Shown here: positions 2,325 to 40,017 of the stretch, in pieces | How positions within the stretch are numbered: position 1 is the first letter of the stretch | Layout: each line of letters starts with the position of its first letter | From: an uncultured Methanosarcinales archaeon | Lineage (GTDB): Archaea > Nanobdellota > Nanobdellia > Woesearchaeales > WJKV01 | Assembly: GCA_964576505.1 (NCBI GenBank) | Contig: CAZNVD010000004.1 | Coordinates: 29,225-71,614, forward strand | DNA: 42,390 nt | Direction: 5' to 3' | Notes under the pieces: generated by a model | The model's database searches: none | What the model was told of the DNA's origin: nothing | The model's input: the letters and a program-made list of their open reading frames with translations, nothing else | Translations under genes and position numbers: made by a program

Positions 2325-3518
2325 ATGAAATTTGCACATATCGCCGACTGCCATCTTGGAGGATGGAGAGAGGAAACGCTTCGCAATATGAGCCTTCACA
2401 TATTTGAGAGAGCTGTAAGCCGAGTGATTGCTGAGAAAGTTGATTTTGTGCTCTTTTGTGGGGATTTGTTTAATACTGCATTGCCGAGTCATGATAGTCT
2501 TCATGCAGCCATTAGTGGATTTGTGAAACTTCGCGATCATGGGATTCCGGTTTATTTAATTGCAGGAAGTCATGATTATAGCTCTTCAGGAAAAAGCTGG
2601 CTTGATCTTCTTGAGCCTACGAAAATATTTGTTAATGTTGCGAAAGTCAAAGAAGATAATGGTAAACTTAAAGTTGAGTTGACTCATGATCCTAAAACAG
2701 GGGTTGCATTAGCTGGAATGCTTGGGAAAAGAGGAGGGCTGGAAACTGAATACTATAAAATGCTTTCATATGATGGTGGGCATGATCGGGATAAGTCAAT
2801 ATTTTTGTTTCATTCGGCGCTTGAAGAATTGAAAGAGGAAGATATGCAGGCGATTGTGTCGCAGCCTCTTTCTTTGCTGCCTACAGGATTCTGGTATTAT
2901 GCAGGAGGACATGTTCATAGACGGCTTGTAAAAGATGTTGCATCGCACGGGCGGATTGTATATCCCGGGCCACTTTTTCCTAATAATTTCAAGGAGCTTG
3001 AAGAGACTACTGGTGGATTCTATATTGTTAATGATGGGGAAATGCAGTTTATTGAGAATAAAGAGGTAAAGGTTGTAAGTGTTAATGTGTCATGCGAAGG
3101 GAAGAAAGCGGAAGATGTCAGGGTGGAAGTTGAAACAAAGATAGAGAAAATTGATGTTGCTGGAAAGATTGTGCTTTTCAGAATGAGTGGACAACTTAGA
3201 GAGGGAAGTCTCAATGAAATACAGATACCTGAACTCATGAAAAAAATGTATGATTGCGGGGCGTTTCAAGTGCTGAGACATTCTGCTGGATTGCATGTAG
3301 TTGAGTTTCAAGAAGTTAAAGTTTCAGGGGAGACAGTAGGGGAGATTGAACAACATGTTATTGCTGAACATAAAGATCAGATCTCTGTTAATGGATTTAA
3401 GGAGACACAAGTGAATGATATGTTAAATAAACTTGGGATTGAAAAAATTGATGGAGAAACTGTAAAAGATTTTAATGATAGGGTGATAAAGGTAAGTGAA
3501 GAAATATTTGGGAAGTAA
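2325..3518 (+). CDS. mre11: Mre11/SbcD DNA double-strand break repair nuclease
   Basis: Metallophosphoesterase motifs ADCHLG, GDLF, GSHD, GGHVH and VYPGP; follows herA. Confidence 0.92.
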   Translation: MKFAHIADCHLGGWREETLRNMSLHIFERAVSRVIAEKVDFVLFCGDLFNTALPSHDSLHAAISGFVKLRDHGIPVYLIAGSHDYSSSGKSWLDLLEPTKIFVNVAKVKEDNGKLKVELTHDPKTGVALAGMLGKRGGLETEYYKMLSYDGGHDRDKSIFLFHSALEELKEEDMQAIVSQPLSLLPTGFWYYAGGHVHRRLVKDVASHGRIVYPGPLFPNNFKELEETTGGFYIVNDGEMQFIENKEVKVVSVNVSCEGKKAEDVRVEVETKIEKIDVAGKIVLFRMSGQLREGSLNEIQIPELMKKMYDCGAFQVLRHSAGLHVVEFQEVKVSGETVGEIEQHVIAEHKDQISVNGFKETQVNDMLNKLGIEKIDGETVKDFNDRVIKVSEEIFGK

Positions 3519-3545: not shown

Positions 3546-3687
3546 TGTTGACGGCACGACGCTCAATTGCGTAGCAATTGAGCTACTCGACACAAAAGAA
3601 AAGCTCTGCTTTTCTTTGTGCATAGAAAGCTAAAGGCTTTCTATTGCACCCCGTAGGGGGCATCCCCCCTCGAGTCGTGCGTCAACA
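3546..3687. repeat. Branched palindromic element, family A copy 1 (REP/BIME-like or structured ncRNA)
   Basis: Terminal arms TGTTGACG(G)CACGAC / GTCGTGCGTCAACA and four internal hairpins. The 22-mer ACCCCGTAGGGGGCATCCCCCC (3648-3669) is identical to 39970-39991. Confidence 0.8.
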
Positions 3688-3700
3688 AGAAATAATTTCG

Positions 3701-5140
3701 CTACTTAATCAGCTTCTTTAGAATTGAAAGAACTTTTGCTGGATCAGCGGCGCCTTTTGTCTGTTTCATGATCTGGCCGACTAAGAAGTTTAATGCTTTT
3801 TCTTCGCCTTTCTTGAAATCTTCAATTGCTTTTGGATTGCTGTCAAGCGCTTTTTTGCACATTGACTCAAGTTCATTGGAATTGTCTACTTTTTGTAATC
3901 CTTGCTTTTTGATGAACTCTTTTGGAGAAAATGATTTTTCCATTAATTGTTCTAAAATTTTCTTTGCAACTGTGTCTGTGATGTCGCCTTTTTGCAGCAG
4001 GTCGAGAAGTTCCACCAGATTTTCTGAAGTCATAGGAACTTCATGGGCTGCTTTTTCCTGATAATTGAGGACTCTTAATAGTTCAGATCTGAACCAGCGC
4101 TCTGCAAGTTTTGGATCAATCTTTTTCAGGACGGTTTCAAATAATTCTGCTAGGCTAATGTCTGATGCAATGATTTTTGCATTTTCTTTTGAGATTCCTG
4201 CCTTTTCAAATTTCTTGATTTTTTGGTCTGGTTTTTCTGGTAGAGTTTTGTTTAAAGATTGAATATATTTTTCTTCAAGGAAGATTGTTGGAAGATCTGG
4301 CTCTGGAATGAAACGGTAATCTGCGGCCTGCTCTTTTTTTCTCATGAAGAATGTAGCTTGTTTTTCGTCATTCCACATTCTTGTTTCCTGAGAATCCATT
4401 TTTTCTGAGTGCTGACGCTTTACTTCAAAATTAATTGCGGCTGCAATTGATTTCAATGAATTTACATTCTTAATTTCAGCTCTGATATAATTTGGAGGAA
4501 TGCTGATGTTTACGTCGCACTTAATACCTGAAGCCGAGTCAATTGCGTCTATGTATGATAATGCATTTAGGAGACTCTTCAGCCATTCTACTACTTGTTC
4601 AGGACTTGTGAAATCCGGGTCTGTGACAATTTCTGCTAATGGGAATCCGCATCGATTGTAGTCAACAAGTCCTGTTTTTGGATCCCATTTTGCTGGGTCT
4701 TCTTCCAGGTGTATTTGTTGAATACCTATGCCGAGAAATGTTCCTTTTGTTCCAACTGGAAATGAATAGGAGCCAGACATTGTTTTCTGAAAACCGTTTG
4801 GTAAGTCTGGCCAGTCGTAGTGTTTACGTTGGAACATTAACTTCTTACTTATTTTGCAATCGAGAAATAGTCCGCATTTGATAATTTTGTCAACTGCTTC
4901 TTTATTTGGAAGCATGGGCTTGCTTCCAGGTTGGGCTGTACAGACAGGACAAACATTGGTATTTGATTCTGAGTCCTGGTTAATATTGCAGTTGCAGAAT
5001 AATTTCTTTTTTGTTTTGGACATCCGCAGGTAACCGTGGATTTCAAGGCCTATTTTAGGAATGATTGTAGATTTAGTTTTATTGATATTTTTTGTGTCAG
5101 GTTGTGATTTCATTTCAGGAATTTGATTTTTGTGAAACAA
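3701..5140 (-). CDS. gatB: Asp-tRNA(Asn)/Glu-tRNA(Gln) amidotransferase subunit B (start uncertain, possibly 5113)
   Basis: IGLEIH, RKHYDWPDLP, IHLEEDPAK, DYNRCG.PL.EIVT.PD, EIKNVNS, DYRFIPEPDLP; C-terminal Yqey-like NFLVGQIMK. Confidence 0.95.
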   Translation of the reverse strand: MFHKNQIPEMKSQPDTKNINKTKSTIIPKIGLEIHGYLRMSKTKKKLFCNCNINQDSESNTNVCPVCTAQPGSKPMLPNKEAVDKIIKCGLFLDCKISKKLMFQRKHYDWPDLPNGFQKTMSGSYSFPVGTKGTFLGIGIQQIHLEEDPAKWDPKTGLVDYNRCGFPLAEIVTDPDFTSPEQVVEWLKSLLNALSYIDAIDSASGIKCDVNISIPPNYIRAEIKNVNSLKSIAAAINFEVKRQHSEKMDSQETRMWNDEKQATFFMRKKEQAADYRFIPEPDLPTIFLEEKYIQSLNKTLPEKPDQKIKKFEKAGISKENAKIIASDISLAELFETVLKKIDPKLAERWFRSELLRVLNYQEKAAHEVPMTSENLVELLDLLQKGDITDTVAKKILEQLMEKSFSPKEFIKKQGLQKVDNSNELESMCKKALDSNPKAIEDFKKGEEKALNFLVGQIMKQTKGAADPAKVLSILKKLIK

Positions 5141-13780: not shown

Positions 13781-14824
13781 TTAACCATTACAATTCGCTG
13801 TTGCTTGAACATCAAAGTTACCACCGTTTGGACTAAATTTAGCACAGAATGGATTACTAGCTGTATCTAAACCACAAATACAAGTGTCGCCTCCAGACAA
13901 GCTAACATCTAGGGTGTCACTTGTTCCTTCTCTAAATTTCCACTGATAATCTCCAGCAGCAATCTGTCTTGCCACTATTTCTCCCAAAATTGTGCCACCA
14001 GTAGCAGTTGCACGAAGTCCGACTAAATCGTTGTTTGATAATGTACCAGTATGTTCAATGTCTAAGCTTCTCTTAGTGTCAGCGTCCGCAGAAATAACAA
14101 CAGAAGCTGTGGCGGCAGTCACACCAGTTAACGCGGAGGATGCACCAGACCCAAGAAATACATTCCTTAAATTAGTATCATCATCATTTGATACAATAAC
14201 CGAAACCGTATCATCATTGTCTAATAAATTTAAAGTCCTAACATTACCAGTCGTTAATCCAAATGTAAAGGAACCAATAATGCTTTCTCCAACTGAATTG
14301 GTAATAGTATAAAAATCCCGACCAGTAAGCGTAGCAGCTTGCACACCAGTGGTCGTTAGCTTTTTATAAATATGGCGATAAGTCCCACTTGTTGCAGAAC
14401 CCGCATCCCTAACATTAGTAAATGAAGGATCTGTAGTTGTTGCCGAATCACCATTAATAGTTATCACACCAGTATCCCGCACAACATCAAAGTGAGACAC
14501 TGAGCCCTTACAAACAGCAAATTCTTTAGTACTTGCTTGAGTAGCCGGATTAGTACAACCAATAATAACAGCAGTTTGACCTGCTGCTAATGTGTAAATG
14601 TGAGTACTGTTCGTACCAACTGTCAAATTTCCTTTAATCGATACGTTCTTTGGAAAGATATAAGTTGCGTTTCTAAAAGATCCACCACGAACTTGAGTTG
14701 CATCGTGACCTGGGTTTGGTGTGTCACCCGGAGAAGCTATAACAAATATTGTGATTGCAAGCATAAACAACATTAAAGCAACTAAGAACGTACGACGATT
14801 AGATAGATCCAGTGTAAATCGCAT
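13781..14824 (-). CDS. Secreted/membrane-anchored Thr/Gly-rich beta-structured surface protein (PNPGH motif)
   Basis: N-terminal hydrophobic helix then SPGDTPNPGHDATQV; GAGGT RBS and TTATAAA upstream. Confidence 0.75.
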   Translation of the reverse strand: MRFTLDLSNRRTFLVALMLFMLAITIFVIASPGDTPNPGHDATQVRGGSFRNATYIFPKNVSIKGNLTVGTNSTHIYTLAAGQTAVIIGCTNPATQASTKEFAVCKGSVSHFDVVRDTGVITINGDSATTTDPSFTNVRDAGSATSGTYRHIYKKLTTTGVQAATLTGRDFYTITNSVGESIIGSFTFGLTTGNVRTLNLLDNDDTVSVIVSNDDDTNLRNVFLGSGASSALTGVTAATASVVISADADTKRSLDIEHTGTLSNNDLVGLRATATGGTILGEIVARQIAAGDYQWKFREGTSDTLDVSLSGGDTCICGLDTASNPFCAKFSPNGGNFDVQATANCNG

Positions 14825-15012
14825 AATAATTACCTCTTTTTTTTCTTGACTTCAGAATGTGAAGAACATTTTATAAGTATTTCGTTAGCAGAGTGTGGAG
14901 GATAATCGAATTAAATTATAAAATTAGCAAGATTTGATTTTATTTTTATCACTGGACTCAGTCCAAATTCTCGAGGACAAAGCATATAAAAACTAAAATT
15001 ACCAGAATGTAC
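14660..15012. repeat. Repeat unit R1 (5' end of surface-protein gene + divergent promoter + palindrome)
   Basis: The 47-bp block 14831-14877 is identical to 16123-16169 and has 4 mismatches to 17687-17733. Block 14955-14999 is near-identical to 16247-16291. Confidence 0.85.
14953..14965. promoter_or_regulatory. Palindrome TGGACT-C-AGTCCA
   Basis: Centre 24 bp before CATATAAA and 54 bp before ATG 15013. Confidence 0.75.
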
Positions 15013-15852
15013 ATGGACAAAAATAAAGCTCTCATAGTATTCCAAGACAAGAAGATAAGAAGAACATGGCATAATGAACAATGGTTTTTCTCTGTTGTTG
15101 ATATTGTTGAAATTCTCACAGATAGCCCAAATCCGAGAAGATATTGGTCAGACCTGAAAATAAAATTAATGAGCGAAGGATTTGAGTTGTACGATAAAAT
15201 CGTACAACTGAAATTAATGGCTTCTGATGGTAAGAACTATGAAACTGATTGCGCTTCTACTGAGAATATATTCAGGTTCATTCAATCTATCCCATCTCCA
15301 AAAGCAGAACCGTTCAAGAGATGGCTTGCTAAAGTTGGTTATGAACGTGTTCAAGAGATAGAAAATCCCGAGTTAGCTCAAGAACGAATGAAACAACTTT
15401 ACGAACAAAAAGGATATTCTAAACCATGGATTGATACCAGACTGCGAGGAATTGCAGTCAGACAGGATTTAACTGAAGAATGGATGAAAAGAGGAATAGA
15501 AAGTAACAATGATTTTGCGATTCTTACTTCAGAGATAGCTAAAGCTACTTTTGGGATGACTCCTACAGAATATAAAGAATTCAAAGGCCTAAAAAATCAG
15601 AATCTTAGAGATCACATGACTGATCTTGAACTCATATTTACCATGTTGGGTGAGGCGTCAACAGCTGAGCTTGAAAGAGTGAAAGATCCAAAAACATTCC
15701 CAGAACATCAAGAAGTAGCTCAAGATGGAGGAAATGTAGCAAAAACAGCCAAACTTGATCTTGAAAGCAAAACTAAAAGAAAAGTTGTTACAGATCAAAA
15801 TTATATAGATGAGCCAGAGAAAGAAAAAAGAAAGAGATTACAATCAAAATGA
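15013..15852 (+). CDS. Bro-N domain (phage antirepressor-like) protein
   Basis: IRRTWHNEQWFFSVVDIV, YWSDLK, IQSIPSPKAEPFKRWLA, NLRDHMTDLELIF; alternative start 15007. Confidence 0.9.
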   Translation: MDKNKALIVFQDKKIRRTWHNEQWFFSVVDIVEILTDSPNPRRYWSDLKIKLMSEGFELYDKIVQLKLMASDGKNYETDCASTENIFRFIQSIPSPKAEPFKRWLAKVGYERVQEIENPELAQERMKQLYEQKGYSKPWIDTRLRGIAVRQDLTEEWMKRGIESNNDFAILTSEIAKATFGMTPTEYKEFKGLKNQNLRDHMTDLELIFTMLGEASTAELERVKDPKTFPEHQEVAQDGGNVAKTAKLDLESKTKRKVVTDQNYIDEPEKEKRKRLQSK

Positions 15853-16031
15853 AGCAACCAAAAGCTTCAATAGCCATTAGGCCCTTGAACTGTTTCTAAA
15901 AGTACCAATAAGGACCCTGAGTTGCACAGTGACTTAAGATATCATCCGAAGAAGCAATAACAAATATTGTAATGTAAGCATGAAAAACATTAAAGCAACT
16001 AGAAATAAACGAAGATTGTAAATCGCATAAT

Positions 16032-16122
16032 CAATATATCAAAAAATGTCAATGTTGGAAATGAGCGAATTTTTTGATTATGAGAAAACAATCCAGGCAG
16101 AAATAAAGGTTATTGTTTTCTC
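16032..16122. mobile_element. Double-hairpin insertion in R2, absent from R1 and R3
   Basis: About 88 extra bp between ATG and RBS; stems ATCAAAAAAT/ATTTTTTGAT and GAGAAAACAAT/ATTGTTTTCTC. Confidence 0.6.
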
Positions 16123-16244
16123 TACCTCTTTTTTTTCTTGACTTCAGAATGTGAAGAACATTTTATAAGCATTTTGGTGGTAGATTATGTAGTTGAGTGT
16201 AAAATATACCAAGAAATATTCTATTACAATTTTCAGAACATAAT

Positions 16245-16257
16245 TAGACTGAGTCCA
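16245..16257. promoter_or_regulatory. Palindrome TAGACT-G-AGTCCA
   Basis: Centre 24 bp before AATATAAA and 55 bp before ATG 16306. Confidence 0.75.
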
Positions 16258-16305
16258 AATTCGCGAGGACAAAGAATATAAAAACTAAAATCATCAGATA
16301 AATAT

Positions 16306-17154
16306 ATGGACACGGAGAAAATCATAAAACTCAAAAAAACGTTTGAAGAATATGCTCGCGAGGCAGAAGGAGTGGAATTTTGGTTTGCGAGAGATTTAAT
16401 GAAACTTTTAGGATATGACAAATGGGAGAATTTTCTTAATGTAATCGAAAATGCGAAAATTGCGTGCACAAATTCAGGTTACGATGTAAATGACCATTTT
16501 CCCGAGGTCAGGAAAATGGTCGAAATTGGCTCCGGAGCAAAAAGAGAAATAGAAGACATAATGCTTACGAGGTATGCCAGTTATCTTATTGCACAAAATG
16601 GTGATCCACGAAAAGAAGAAATCGCTTTTGCTCAAAGTTACTTCGCCATTCAAACAAGAAAACAAGAATTAATAGAACAAAGAATTTCATTGCAGGAAAG
16701 ATTACAGGCCAGACATAAGTTAATGGCTGCGGAATCTGAGCTTTCAAAACTCATATATGAACGAGGAGTTGATAATAATGGATTTGCAAGAATAAGAAGC
16801 AGCGGAGACAAGGTACTATTTGGAGGACACACCACTGCCCGAATGAAGACCAAACTTGGAGTTCCCTCAAATAGACCTCTTGCCGATTTTCTTCCCACTA
16901 TAACAATAACTGCAAAAAATTTTGCCACAGAAATTACTAATTTCAATGTCAAGAAAAATAATCTTGAAAAAGAAGATAACATAACGAAGGAGCACATTCT
17001 AAATAATGCAGATGTAAGAGACTTGTTGATAAAACGAGGAATAAAACCTGAAGAACTACCTCCTGAGGAAGATATTAAAAGTATCGAGCAATCAATAAAG
17101 AAAGACGAATACAATATTGCTGCCAGTTCAAAGCACAAGAAAAAATTAAAATGA
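16306..17154 (+). CDS. dinD: DNA damage-inducible protein D family
   Basis: EFWFARDL..LLGY..WENF, LTRYASYLIAQNGDPRKEEIAFAQSYFAIQTRKQE, RPLADFLPT, GIKPEELPPEEDIK. Confidence 0.92.
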   Translation: MDTEKIIKLKKTFEEYAREAEGVEFWFARDLMKLLGYDKWENFLNVIENAKIACTNSGYDVNDHFPEVRKMVEIGSGAKREIEDIMLTRYASYLIAQNGDPRKEEIAFAQSYFAIQTRKQELIEQRISLQERLQARHKLMAAESELSKLIYERGVDNNGFARIRSSGDKVLFGGHTTARMKTKLGVPSNRPLADFLPTITITAKNFATEITNFNVKKNNLEKEDNITKEHILNNADVRDLLIKRGIKPEELPPEEDIKSIEQSIKKDEYNIAASSKHKKKLK

Positions 17155-17170
17155 TCAAAAACCTGAAGAA

Positions 17171-17440
17171 CTACTTAACGCCTAGTTTCTTTGCAATCTC
17201 TCGTACGGCCTGCTCCCTTACTTCATGAATCTGCTCATCAGTAATTTTCCTATCCTTCTTTGATCCTGCGCCATATGCATGCTCTAAGCGAAATAATGCC
17301 TCCTGTGTTTCCAAATCCTTCATTTTTTCTCTAATAGCTTCTCGAATAAATTCGGCTTTAGTAGAATACCGATGCTCTTTCATGATCTTTTCCATATCAT
17401 GAATGAAAGAGTCTTCAAATCTAACTGATATTGTTTCCAT
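17171..17440 (-). CDS. Ribbon-helix-helix (CopG/Arc/MetJ) protein, orphan antitoxin-like
   Basis: METISVRFE...YSTKAEFIREAIREK. Confidence 0.85.
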   Translation of the reverse strand: METISVRFEDSFIHDMEKIMKEHRYSTKAEFIREAIREKMKDLETQEALFRLEHAYGAGSKKDRKITDEQIHEVREQAVREIAKKLGVK

Positions 17441-17508
17441 TGTATTACTTTGTAAGACTTTGTGCTATTTAAATTTTTCTGTAAAATACACTATAAAGAT
17501 AATAATCA

Positions 17509-17868
17509 AGAGCAAAAAAAGCTTCAACAGATAGATCCATGAATTATTTCTAAAAGTACCAATAAGAACCTGAGTTCAGAGTGACTTAAGATATCATCCG
17601 AAGAAGCTAACAAATATTGTAACGTAAGCATGAAAAACATTAAAGCAATAAGAAATCATTGAAGATTGTAAATCGCACGGGCGATTTACCTCTTTTTTTT
17701 CTTGGTTTCAGAATGTTGAGAACATTTTATAAGATTTATGATAGTAGATTATGCACATAACAAAAAAATATTTCATAAAATTATTTTTTTGCAATCTTAA
17801 GAAGATTATTGGAATGAGTCCAATAATAGAGGAGATAAACATATTAAAGATAAAATGCCTTAGTAATT
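17509..17868. repeat. Repeat unit R3 with a second degraded 5' fragment of the surface-protein gene
   Basis: Close to R2 (TTTCTAAAAGTACCAATAAG, GTGACTTAAGATATCATCCGAAGAAGC, GTAAGCATGAAAAACATTAAAGCAA). Confidence 0.85.
17810..17822. promoter_or_regulatory. Palindrome TGGAAT-G-AGTCCA (extended ATTATTGGA...TCCAATAAT)
   Basis: Centre 24 bp before CATATTAAA and 53 bp before ATG 17869. Confidence 0.72.
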
Positions 17869-39912: not shown

Positions 39913-40017
39913 AATAGTAGCAGGGTTGCGGCATGACGGACATTTTGCGTGCAAAATGTCCTACGCGTGACCCCGTAGGGGGCATCCCCCCACGCGTCAT
40001 GCGCAACATATACTATT
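39913..40017. repeat. Branched palindromic element, family A copy 2
   Basis: GTTGCG(G)CATGAC / GTCATGCGCAAC arms, side hairpin GGACATTTTGC-gt-GCAAAATGTCC + TAC, same 22-mer apex as 3648-3669. Confidence 0.8.

Follow-up and report, generated by a model that had tools for sequence, protein, structure and literature searches.

A GC-rich, multiply branched palindrome lies at positions 3546–3687 of the window, that is, of the whole 42,390-nt stretch analysed here (contig CAZNVD010000004.1, positions 29,225–71,614, from an archaeal genome of the order Woesearchaeales). We think it probable that this element belongs to a family of non-autonomous palindromic DNA repeats of about 80–145 nt, which have spread between genes in certain genomes of Woesearchaeota (GTDB Nanoarchaeota). 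A dispersed, extragenic and structured palindromic repeat is supported by 21 copies within the same genome and by numerous others in further genomes with a Woesearchaeota label, the family being multicopy and patchy across genomes. As judged from the alignments, the fold is conserved while the stem sequences differ among copies, and covariation keeps the stems in Watson-Crick pairing without preference for either strand.

An earlier inspection of the letters alone (the sequence-only reading) had likened the element to bacterial repetitive extragenic palindromes (REPs) and bacterial interspersed mosaic elements (BIMEs), with two inverted units of GTAG plus palindrome such as are recognised in bacteria by REP-associated tyrosine transposases (RAYTs). 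It proposed either a repeat mobilised as single-stranded DNA (ssDNA) or a structured non-coding RNA (ncRNA), and suggested a genome search for further copies, a covariance model, a comparison with Rfam, and searches for transposases next to copies and for empty sites in relatives. For the present analysis the genome of the window (G000; 1.31 Mb in 81 contigs, 38% G+C, 97%-complete) was compared with a same-order set of 61 genomes in which it is itself included, with seven genomes of the same family (G001, G002, G005 and G006 among them unpublished), and with a separate phylum sample of 151 genomes. Other G-numbers denote comparison genomes, C-numbers contigs (of G000 unless another genome is named) and L-numbers loci.

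The branched palindrome and its two repeat families

The copy at 3546–3687 is a family-A element of the long form, described here on the + strand for convenience of description only, and was delimited from its sequence, from RNA and DNA folds and from similar copies on C18 and C19. Its closing stem begins with a left arm at 3546–3560, which consists of a variable outer part (3546–3552), a bulged G at 3553 and the inner GCACGAC (3554–3560). The outer part pairs with 3681–3687 and the inner part with GTCGTGC at 3674–3680. Next comes side hairpin 1 (3561–3583), with a 10-bp stem and a GTA loop, whose sequence differs among copies while its pairing is kept. It is followed at 3584–3590 by the junction TAC (3584–3586) and by TCGA (3587–3590), the 5′ arm of stem 3, which pairs with TCGA at 3670–3673. 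Enclosed by stem 3 are a nested A/T-rich insert of two hairpins (3591–3620 and 3621–3646, then CA, thus 3591–3648 in all), missing from the short form, and the apex module at 3649–3669. The apex is made up of CCCC (segment Y1), a GTA loop, GGGG (segment R), a GCAT linker and CCCCC (segment Y2), its full string being CCCC-GTA-GGGGG-CAT-CCCCCC. The remaining part (3670–3687), TCGA followed by GTCGTGC and GTCAACA, is complementary to 3587–3590 and 3546–3560.

Folded as RNA, the + strand of 3546–3687 reached −77.2 kcal/mol (z −10.7; 0 of 200 shuffles were as good) and the − strand a z of −10.3, and with DNA parameters the same architecture was obtained at −48.6 kcal/mol (z −11.9). The multibranched hairpin is far beyond chance, both as RNA and as DNA. 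The anatomy drawn by the sequence-only reading (bulged G, left arm split by a side hairpin, further hairpins, apex) was confirmed, positions included.

BLAST, a motif scan and two covariance models, R1 built from seven short family-A copies and R2 from five family-B copies of G000, together gave 21 copies for G000, of which 15 belong to family A and six to family B, so the family is not limited to the two copies in the window. The closest relatives of the 3546–3687 copy are a 98% identical one on C18 and an 85% identical one on C19. The second window copy, at 39925–40006 on the + strand, is a family-A short form without the insert and lies between divergent open reading frames (ORFs); it scored 90.8 bits with R1, folded as DNA with a z of −5.8, and remained without a hit when plasmid and phage collections were searched by blastn. 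Many further partial matches in the BLAST and motif scan of G000 came through the apex, which is common to both families, and a regular expression for the apex matched 17 times. All 17 of these copies lie between long ORFs, three of them touching only ORFs with alternative start codons; this tabulation covers the 17 and stands apart from the four copies found later.

Family A has the order closing stem with bulged G, side hairpin, TAC, stem 3 and apex. The bulged G was present in all seven short family-A copies of G000, and the ends of the closing stem are short and variable in this genome. Family B, in turn, is a long hairpin of about 115 nt that carries the same apex, contains two internal loops and has CCTTAAG as a fixed sequence; its copies lie outside the window at C7:26154–26267, C8:17255–17369, C10:31199–31313, C19:10511–10624, C23:3938–4054 and C36:5645–5812. 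Compensated changes were seen in 15 of its 33 pairs. It is essentially private to G000, having matched in two of the 61 same-order genomes, the match in the other one being weak.

The two-hairpin insert was found in six of the 21 copies (window 3591–3648, and copies on C18, C19, C10, C36 and at C2:41062–41122), only ever nested within a copy of family A or B. It stands before the apex in four family-A copies and one family-B copy, and at the bulged G in one family-A copy; given these two different structural positions, it appears to target loops or junctions of its host element. No clear match to the insert was found in the 60 relatives, only short A/T-rich ones. In the copy at C2:73856 the apex is broken by a different hairpin-rich insert. 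We also observed, 12–16 nt beyond the closing stem of four to five family-A copies, a loose A/T-rich tail that has GCACC or GCAAC at its end (in the right flanks of C11:909, C18:5523, C4:361 and C2:15107, and window 3688–3705).

Covariation of the stems and the apex motif

The main alignment comprised 84 copies from 17 genomes and, having been fitted to the model, leans towards structure; 89.6% of its pair cells were standard pairs, and 28 of the 32 pairs had changed on both sides. The covariation score was 0.563; shuffles reached 0.142, and slid partners no more than 0.11. Both-side changes occurred at every pair of helix 1 (the closing stem), at 8/8 pairs of helix 2 (the side hairpin, with 92.3% of cells paired) and at 7/7 pairs of stem 3, and the counts of pairs changed on one side were near zero in all three. 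A functional RNA made from one strand is expected to tolerate G·U and to avoid A·C. Among the 2426 pair cells G·T or T·G occurred in 39 and A·C or C·A in 53; the two kinds are similarly rare, which favours neither strand. Pyrimidine-pyrimidine combinations, with 111 cells, were the most frequent non-pairs and cluster at a single position in the side hairpin and at a tandem pair in stem 3. Because these mismatches recur, the two strands differ in structure, an asymmetry that would fit the recognition of one folded single strand.

The side hairpin stands on conserved feet, GACGG before it in 99 of the 148 parsed copies and CCTA(C) after it in 84. On the minus strand these read CGTC and GTAG, respectively, the whole foot being (G/A)TAG...CGTC. 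The GTAG that the sequence-only reading had placed at the side hairpin thus recurs in many copies, yet a likeness of 4 nt to the GTAG and CGTC tags of REPs cannot show homology. Its second unit, GTAG-GGGG-CAT-CCCC at the apex, did not hold. Covariation of the apex backs a CCCC/GGGG (Y1:R) hairpin with a G-N-A loop and not the GGGGG-CAT-CCCCC hairpin of the energy minimum. The loop is G-N-A in 72 of the 148 copies and GTAA in 12, closed by 5′-C/3′-G, and GTA itself occurs in 34. As the apex GTA is one variant of a variable loop, a single element does not contain two inverted REP units.

This apex matches the motif of DNA mini-hairpins, a G-N-A or G-N-N-A loop with C-G closure, as given in PMC3201870 and PMC13037366. 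According to the same papers, G-N-A mini-hairpins are extraordinarily stable in DNA and far less so in RNA, and PMC13037366 places them where ssDNA is primed and in the hairpin promoters of phage N4. With its core of C-GNA-G or C-GNNA-G the apex resembles the mini-hairpins GCGNAGC and GCGNNAGC described there. Unlike these, it is embedded in a dispersed repeat, and the likeness is one of motif.

The third apex segment, Y2, changes in mirror register with Y1:R (alignments A4 and A5). CTCC/GGAG goes with CCCTC in 10/10 copies from five genomes, TCCC/GGGA with CCCCT in eight copies from three genomes (with one CCCCC exception), and GCCC/GGGC with CCCCA in six copies from three genomes; counter-examples come from a 12-copy class, CCCC-GTAA-GGGA ... 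CCCCC. Pyrimidine-purine-pyrimidine covariation in mirror register is what a short triplex on the mini-hairpin would require. Each apex variant may have arisen only once, and the triplex is a lead rather than a result.

The second proposal of the sequence-only reading can be weighed against these data. A structured ncRNA or cis-acting RNA could be a 3′-UTR (untranslated region) stabiliser or terminator, a role that REPs have in bacteria, or else a repeat-borne RNA that cleaves itself or binds a protein. The very strong fold, the strong covariation in all three main helices, the conserved junction nucleotides and apex motif, and a T-run after some G011 copies would suit such an RNA. So would the three family-A copies of G000 (C4:361–444, C31:7457–7545 and C2:73856–73948) that lie about 37–60 nt downstream of putative tRNA 3′ ends in the same orientation. 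However, none of the 47 element loci in G011 and G074 has a tRNA within 100 nt, and a general linkage to tRNAs was rejected. G·U pairs are not in excess over A·C, the distribution is patchy, and G-N-A triloops are a DNA-stable rather than an RNA-stable motif. Rfam gave no match over the whole window at gathering scores; at the locus itself, with E ≤ 10, there were three weak matches of 14.9–18.2 bits vs. cut-offs of 50–90. Readings as K-turn, H/ACA or C/D box RNA, hammerhead, retron or diversity-generating retroelement were dropped by eye, on comparison with consensus features, with defining motifs or partner genes missing.

The orientation of copies also speaks against the RNA. For 70 copies in three genomes, 49 had ORFs on both sides, in 26 tandem, 13 convergent and 10 divergent contexts (background in G000: 267, 98 and 151). 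In the tandem contexts 13 copies run along the genes and 13 against them, so no orientation is preferred. Many copies lie only 6–30 nt from ORF ends, which leaves no room for a promoter of their own. Ten abutting inverted pairs, + then −, were found in other genomes (G015, G074, G113, G116 and G165), and none among the 21 copies of G000. Taken together, the Watson-Crick-to-Watson-Crick changes, the even orientation, the inverted dimers and the GNA apex loop favour an element acting at the DNA level, probably as ssDNA, which was the first of the two earlier proposals; an RNA we consider unlikely.

Distribution, insertion sites and ends

Model R1 matched in 15 of the 61 same-order genomes (G000 counted), each of which gave between 1 and 26 matches; the seven same-family genomes gave none. 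In the phylum sample 17 of the 151 genomes had matches, all labelled as the same order, with up to 22–23 copies. Presence and absence therefore vary among genomes. A degenerate pattern of side-hairpin foot plus apex, scanned over 185,579 species genomes, matched at least 113 stretches. Among the 80 matches listed, 57 are titled Woesearchaeota, Nanoarchaeota or Nanoarchaeia, 20 "uncultured Methanosarcinales archaeon" (automatic, unchecked labels of metagenome-assembled genomes, MAGs) and three otherwise. The pattern had no match among viral contigs. G030 and G118, from one genus, have a single copy each, at loci without detectable homology. Separately, G043, G055, G028, G062 and G072 gave 108–242 first-look candidates with R1 and R2, yet no scoring match, and may hold other GC-rich hairpin repeat families.

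The 3546–3687 element sits between two convergent genes, as the sequence-only reading had stated and Pfam confirmed. One encodes the Mre11-type phosphoesterase (2325–3518, + strand; Metallophos) and lies next to HerA, on its downstream side; the other is gatB (3701–5140, − strand; GatB_N and GatB_Yqey). Both lie outside the element, which takes up about 140 of the 182 nt between them. In G003, of the same family and another genus, gatB faces a convergent 398-aa ORF whose product is 44% identical to the Mre11-type protein of the window, and the two stop codons are about 10 nt apart. In G006 only 9 nt separate gatB from its convergent ORF, and in G002 there are 15 nt between them, the partner being confirmed as mre11 in G003 only. 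Since the repeat family is wholly missing from the same-family relatives, a gain in the G000 lineage is the simpler reading. On this comparison the element is an insertion at the mre11–gatB site relative to the near-abutting genes of its relatives, and the empty sites that had been suggested as a check were found at this level. A fine-scale empty site in a congener was rejected, as G074 and G192 align only over the element itself.

Recent copying is seen in the 98% identical pair of G000 and in identical copies at unlinked loci, three in G056 and two in G165. The identity stops sharply at 184 and 141 nt, respectively, and a longer repeat around these copies was rejected. Direct repeats flanking the element at p ≤ 0.05 occurred in only four of 92 copies, which is about the chance level, and two were convincing. 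As a family, these repeats leave no target-site duplication.

We also weighed an ordinary MITE (a miniature transposable element with inverted repeats), mobilised by a DDE transposase, whose target-site duplications have decayed. Like bacterial and archaeal MITEs, the elements are of small size, lie between genes and are non-autonomous. The closing stem in G011 and in G074 is long and, inside each genome, conserved, resembling genome-specific terminal inverted repeats, and a 17-nt end motif of G011 occurred 54 times vs. once for the reversed control. A high density of MITEs is also on record for a Woesearchaeal genome, among the densest of the archaea in the census PMC11602168. However, ten G011 end-motif sites that R1 had missed were inspected, and they comprise eight small elements of 88–147 nt, one of which has an unrelated interior, and two sites without a paired right end. 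No parent insertion sequence (IS) with G011 ends was found, no short duplication was seen by eye at these well-defined ends, and G000 has no multicopy gene. Unlike MITEs, the family generally lacks target duplications, a parent IS and transposase remnants, and what is conserved is the internal branched fold and not only the ends.

The exception is found in G056, on contigs C60, C104 and C113 (L150–L152). Three copies there, identical over 184 nt, end in terminal inverted repeats of 17 nt, are flanked by perfect 9-bp target duplications and have a family-A core in the centre. As their ends are unrelated to the closing stem of the family itself, the core there seems to be cargo or a nested insert, and this 184-nt element reads as a classic MITE that carries the family-A core or was invaded by it. 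An extra copy of its left end abuts one of the composites (L151:2149–2165). For the family as a whole, a decayed DDE-type MITE is in our judgement highly improbable.

Two further repeat observations stand apart from these questions. In the right flanks of the G074 loci L095–L110 more GC-rich hairpin modules recur, for example of the GCGAG...GAGCAG and CAGAAGC...GCTTCTGAGCA types, which indicates that G074 carries mosaic clusters of several kinds of repeats. Within the window, at 14724–17781, three direct copies of 70–95-nt segments occur 1.2–1.65 kb apart (repeat families D1–D3, D9 and D13), including a common T-rich block and, behind it, 40 nt that are conserved. Their appearance is that of paralogous gene units in tandem whose upstream regions have been kept.

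Candidate enzymes and relation to known systems

On our reading the repeat would be copied or moved as folded ssDNA or in the form of an extruded cruciform, and a trans-acting enzyme would recognise its shape along with the bulged G, the GACGG/CCTAC feet, the pyrimidine-pyrimidine mismatches and the apex. The element would work like attC sites or like REPs and their doublets forming hairpins (REPINs), through an enzyme other than a recognisable Y1 or IS110 transposase, and the stems would stay paired either because only folded variants are propagated or because mismatches between the arms are repaired.

The link to a Y1 (HUH) transposase of the RAYT type, which the sequence-only reading had drawn, would make the family a true REP or REPIN. 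It could draw on the GTAG- and CGTC-like feet that flank the side hairpin on the minus strand, on the lack of target-site duplications, on the inverted dimers of other genomes and on the presence of Y1 in 14 of the 61 same-order genomes. Yet PF01797 (Y1_Tnp) had no match in G000 and was absent from all five genomes with the highest copy numbers (G000, G011, G015, G058 and G036). It was found in six of the 15 element-bearing genomes, never on a contig with an element. The apex "GTAG" is, as described above, part of a variable loop. In Di Nocera et al. (2013, PMC3733652) every REP superfamily of the GTAG and CGTC kinds is bacterial and consists of single hairpins of 20–40 nt, the CGTC class being noted as without a transposase. 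We give this link very little credence.

The wider spread of the repeat by any mobilising enzyme has its own difficulties. No such enzyme was found by searches for Y1, TnpB, IS110, multicopy ORFs and neighbouring genes. Besides the missing PF01797, G000 gave a single weak, sub-threshold match to the TnpB zinc ribbon and none to IS110, which is present in six of the 61 genomes, none of them high-copy. Neither multicopy ORFs nor DNA repeats reaching 200 bp occur in it. No neighbour protein family recurs, the largest cluster among 582 ORFs covering five of 80 loci; beside the copies of G074 and G011 lie unrelated housekeeping genes, and none recurs in the G074, G011 and G022 loci. Three ORFs of 434–464 aa beside G074 copies were rejected as partners, being mutually unrelated. 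Moreover, the flanking proteins of the empty-site relatives are only 44–61% identical, so that exact insertion boundaries are unreadable. Four groundwater DNA runs of one study, with contigs at low depth, gave no insertion polymorphism; no empty site was seen and only other repeat copies were mapped. Finally, the G000 copies are fairly diverged yet well paired, which would also fit selection for a host function. All these points weigh against a mobile repeat. At the same time, MAG assemblies often lose repeated transposase genes, and the absence of the enzyme is not proof.

A host function might take the form of a single-strand or cruciform DNA signal, either a priming or single-strand initiation site or an attC-like site of a tyrosine recombinase. 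Integron attC sites act as folded single strands. The repeat resembles them in that structure is conserved over sequence, in two nested paired boxes (outer and inner), in a bulged base on one arm and in a variable, sometimes branched terminal structure. Its recurrent pyrimidine-pyrimidine mismatches would mark one strand, and mini-hairpins of the CC-GAA-GG type occur at ssDNA priming sites and in N4 hairpin promoters (PMC13037366). Integrons are reported in Nanoarchaeota (PMC9668308). In G022 (L046; C25:11358–14441) two family-A copies in the same orientation, 1.9 kb apart and identical save for a fully compensated side hairpin, bracket a gene for an Mrr-type restriction endonuclease beside a XerA-like recombinase. 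However, this tyrosine recombinase scored below every curated cut-off, the integron-integrase models included, and an integron at this locus was rejected. Unlike attC sites, the copies form no cassette arrays and come with no integron integrase; they are solitary, 5–35 kb apart among housekeeping genes and in both orientations. By eye, the outer stems of G000 do not seem to fit the R-box consensus. The patchy distribution likewise argues against a core host function, and we regard such a signal as very unlikely.

Among known systems the repeat behaves, on our analysis, like REP/REPIN or MITE elements, yet it appears to lack defining features of each. As with bacterial REPs, REPINs and BIMEs, these are short, GC-rich, extragenic, imperfect palindromes in tens of copies, uneven among related genomes, in inverted dimers in some genomes other than G000, without target duplication and with short conserved stretches at the hairpin foot that resemble REP tags. 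Unlike REPs they reside in an archaeal (DPANN) host, form a three-arm unit of 80–145 nt vs. a single hairpin of 20–40 nt, have stems that vary and covary among copies of one genome, and occur at high copy number without a RAYT; G000 itself has no inverted dimers. AT-rich organelle genomes contain GC-rich palindromic clusters and double-hairpin elements that nest and spread without a known transposase. The likeness to these clusters, palindromic repeats being known from algal and fungal mitochondria, lies in GC-rich hairpins in an AT-rich genome and in nesting; the hosts are unrelated and it is an analogy only.

Literature searches on repeats of DPANN or Woesearchaeota listed no description of the family. 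It may already be included, without description, in the sequence lists of the MITE census (PMC11602168). A 2025 survey of "REPs" in archaea (PMC12306157) counts generic hairpins. Going further, the family may represent the DNA side of an archaeal transposition or recombination system that is structure-specific and so far undescribed. Its enzyme would be unrelated to Y1/RAYT, IS110 and integron integrases and would recognise a folded single strand, whose signature would be a three-way junction with a C-rich apex of three co-varying segments. This we offer tentatively, as a proposal unlikely to prove right.

Small palindromes of the REP-RAYT type with a known enzyme have been a bacterial story, and for archaea, especially the reduced genomes of DPANN, only bulk counts have been available so far. 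In practice, the repeats are a source of false calls of structured RNA and of assembly breaks in Woesearchaeota genomes. Should the enzyme prove to be a recombinase of the host or a HUH protein that has diverged, the finding would become a routine extension of a known family. The repeat is widespread in Woesearchaeota-labelled MAGs, keeps its shape by compensated changes, nests within itself, and comes without target duplication or a recognisable transposase; as such it would be a defined substrate in the search for a DNA enzyme of a new, structure-specific kind.

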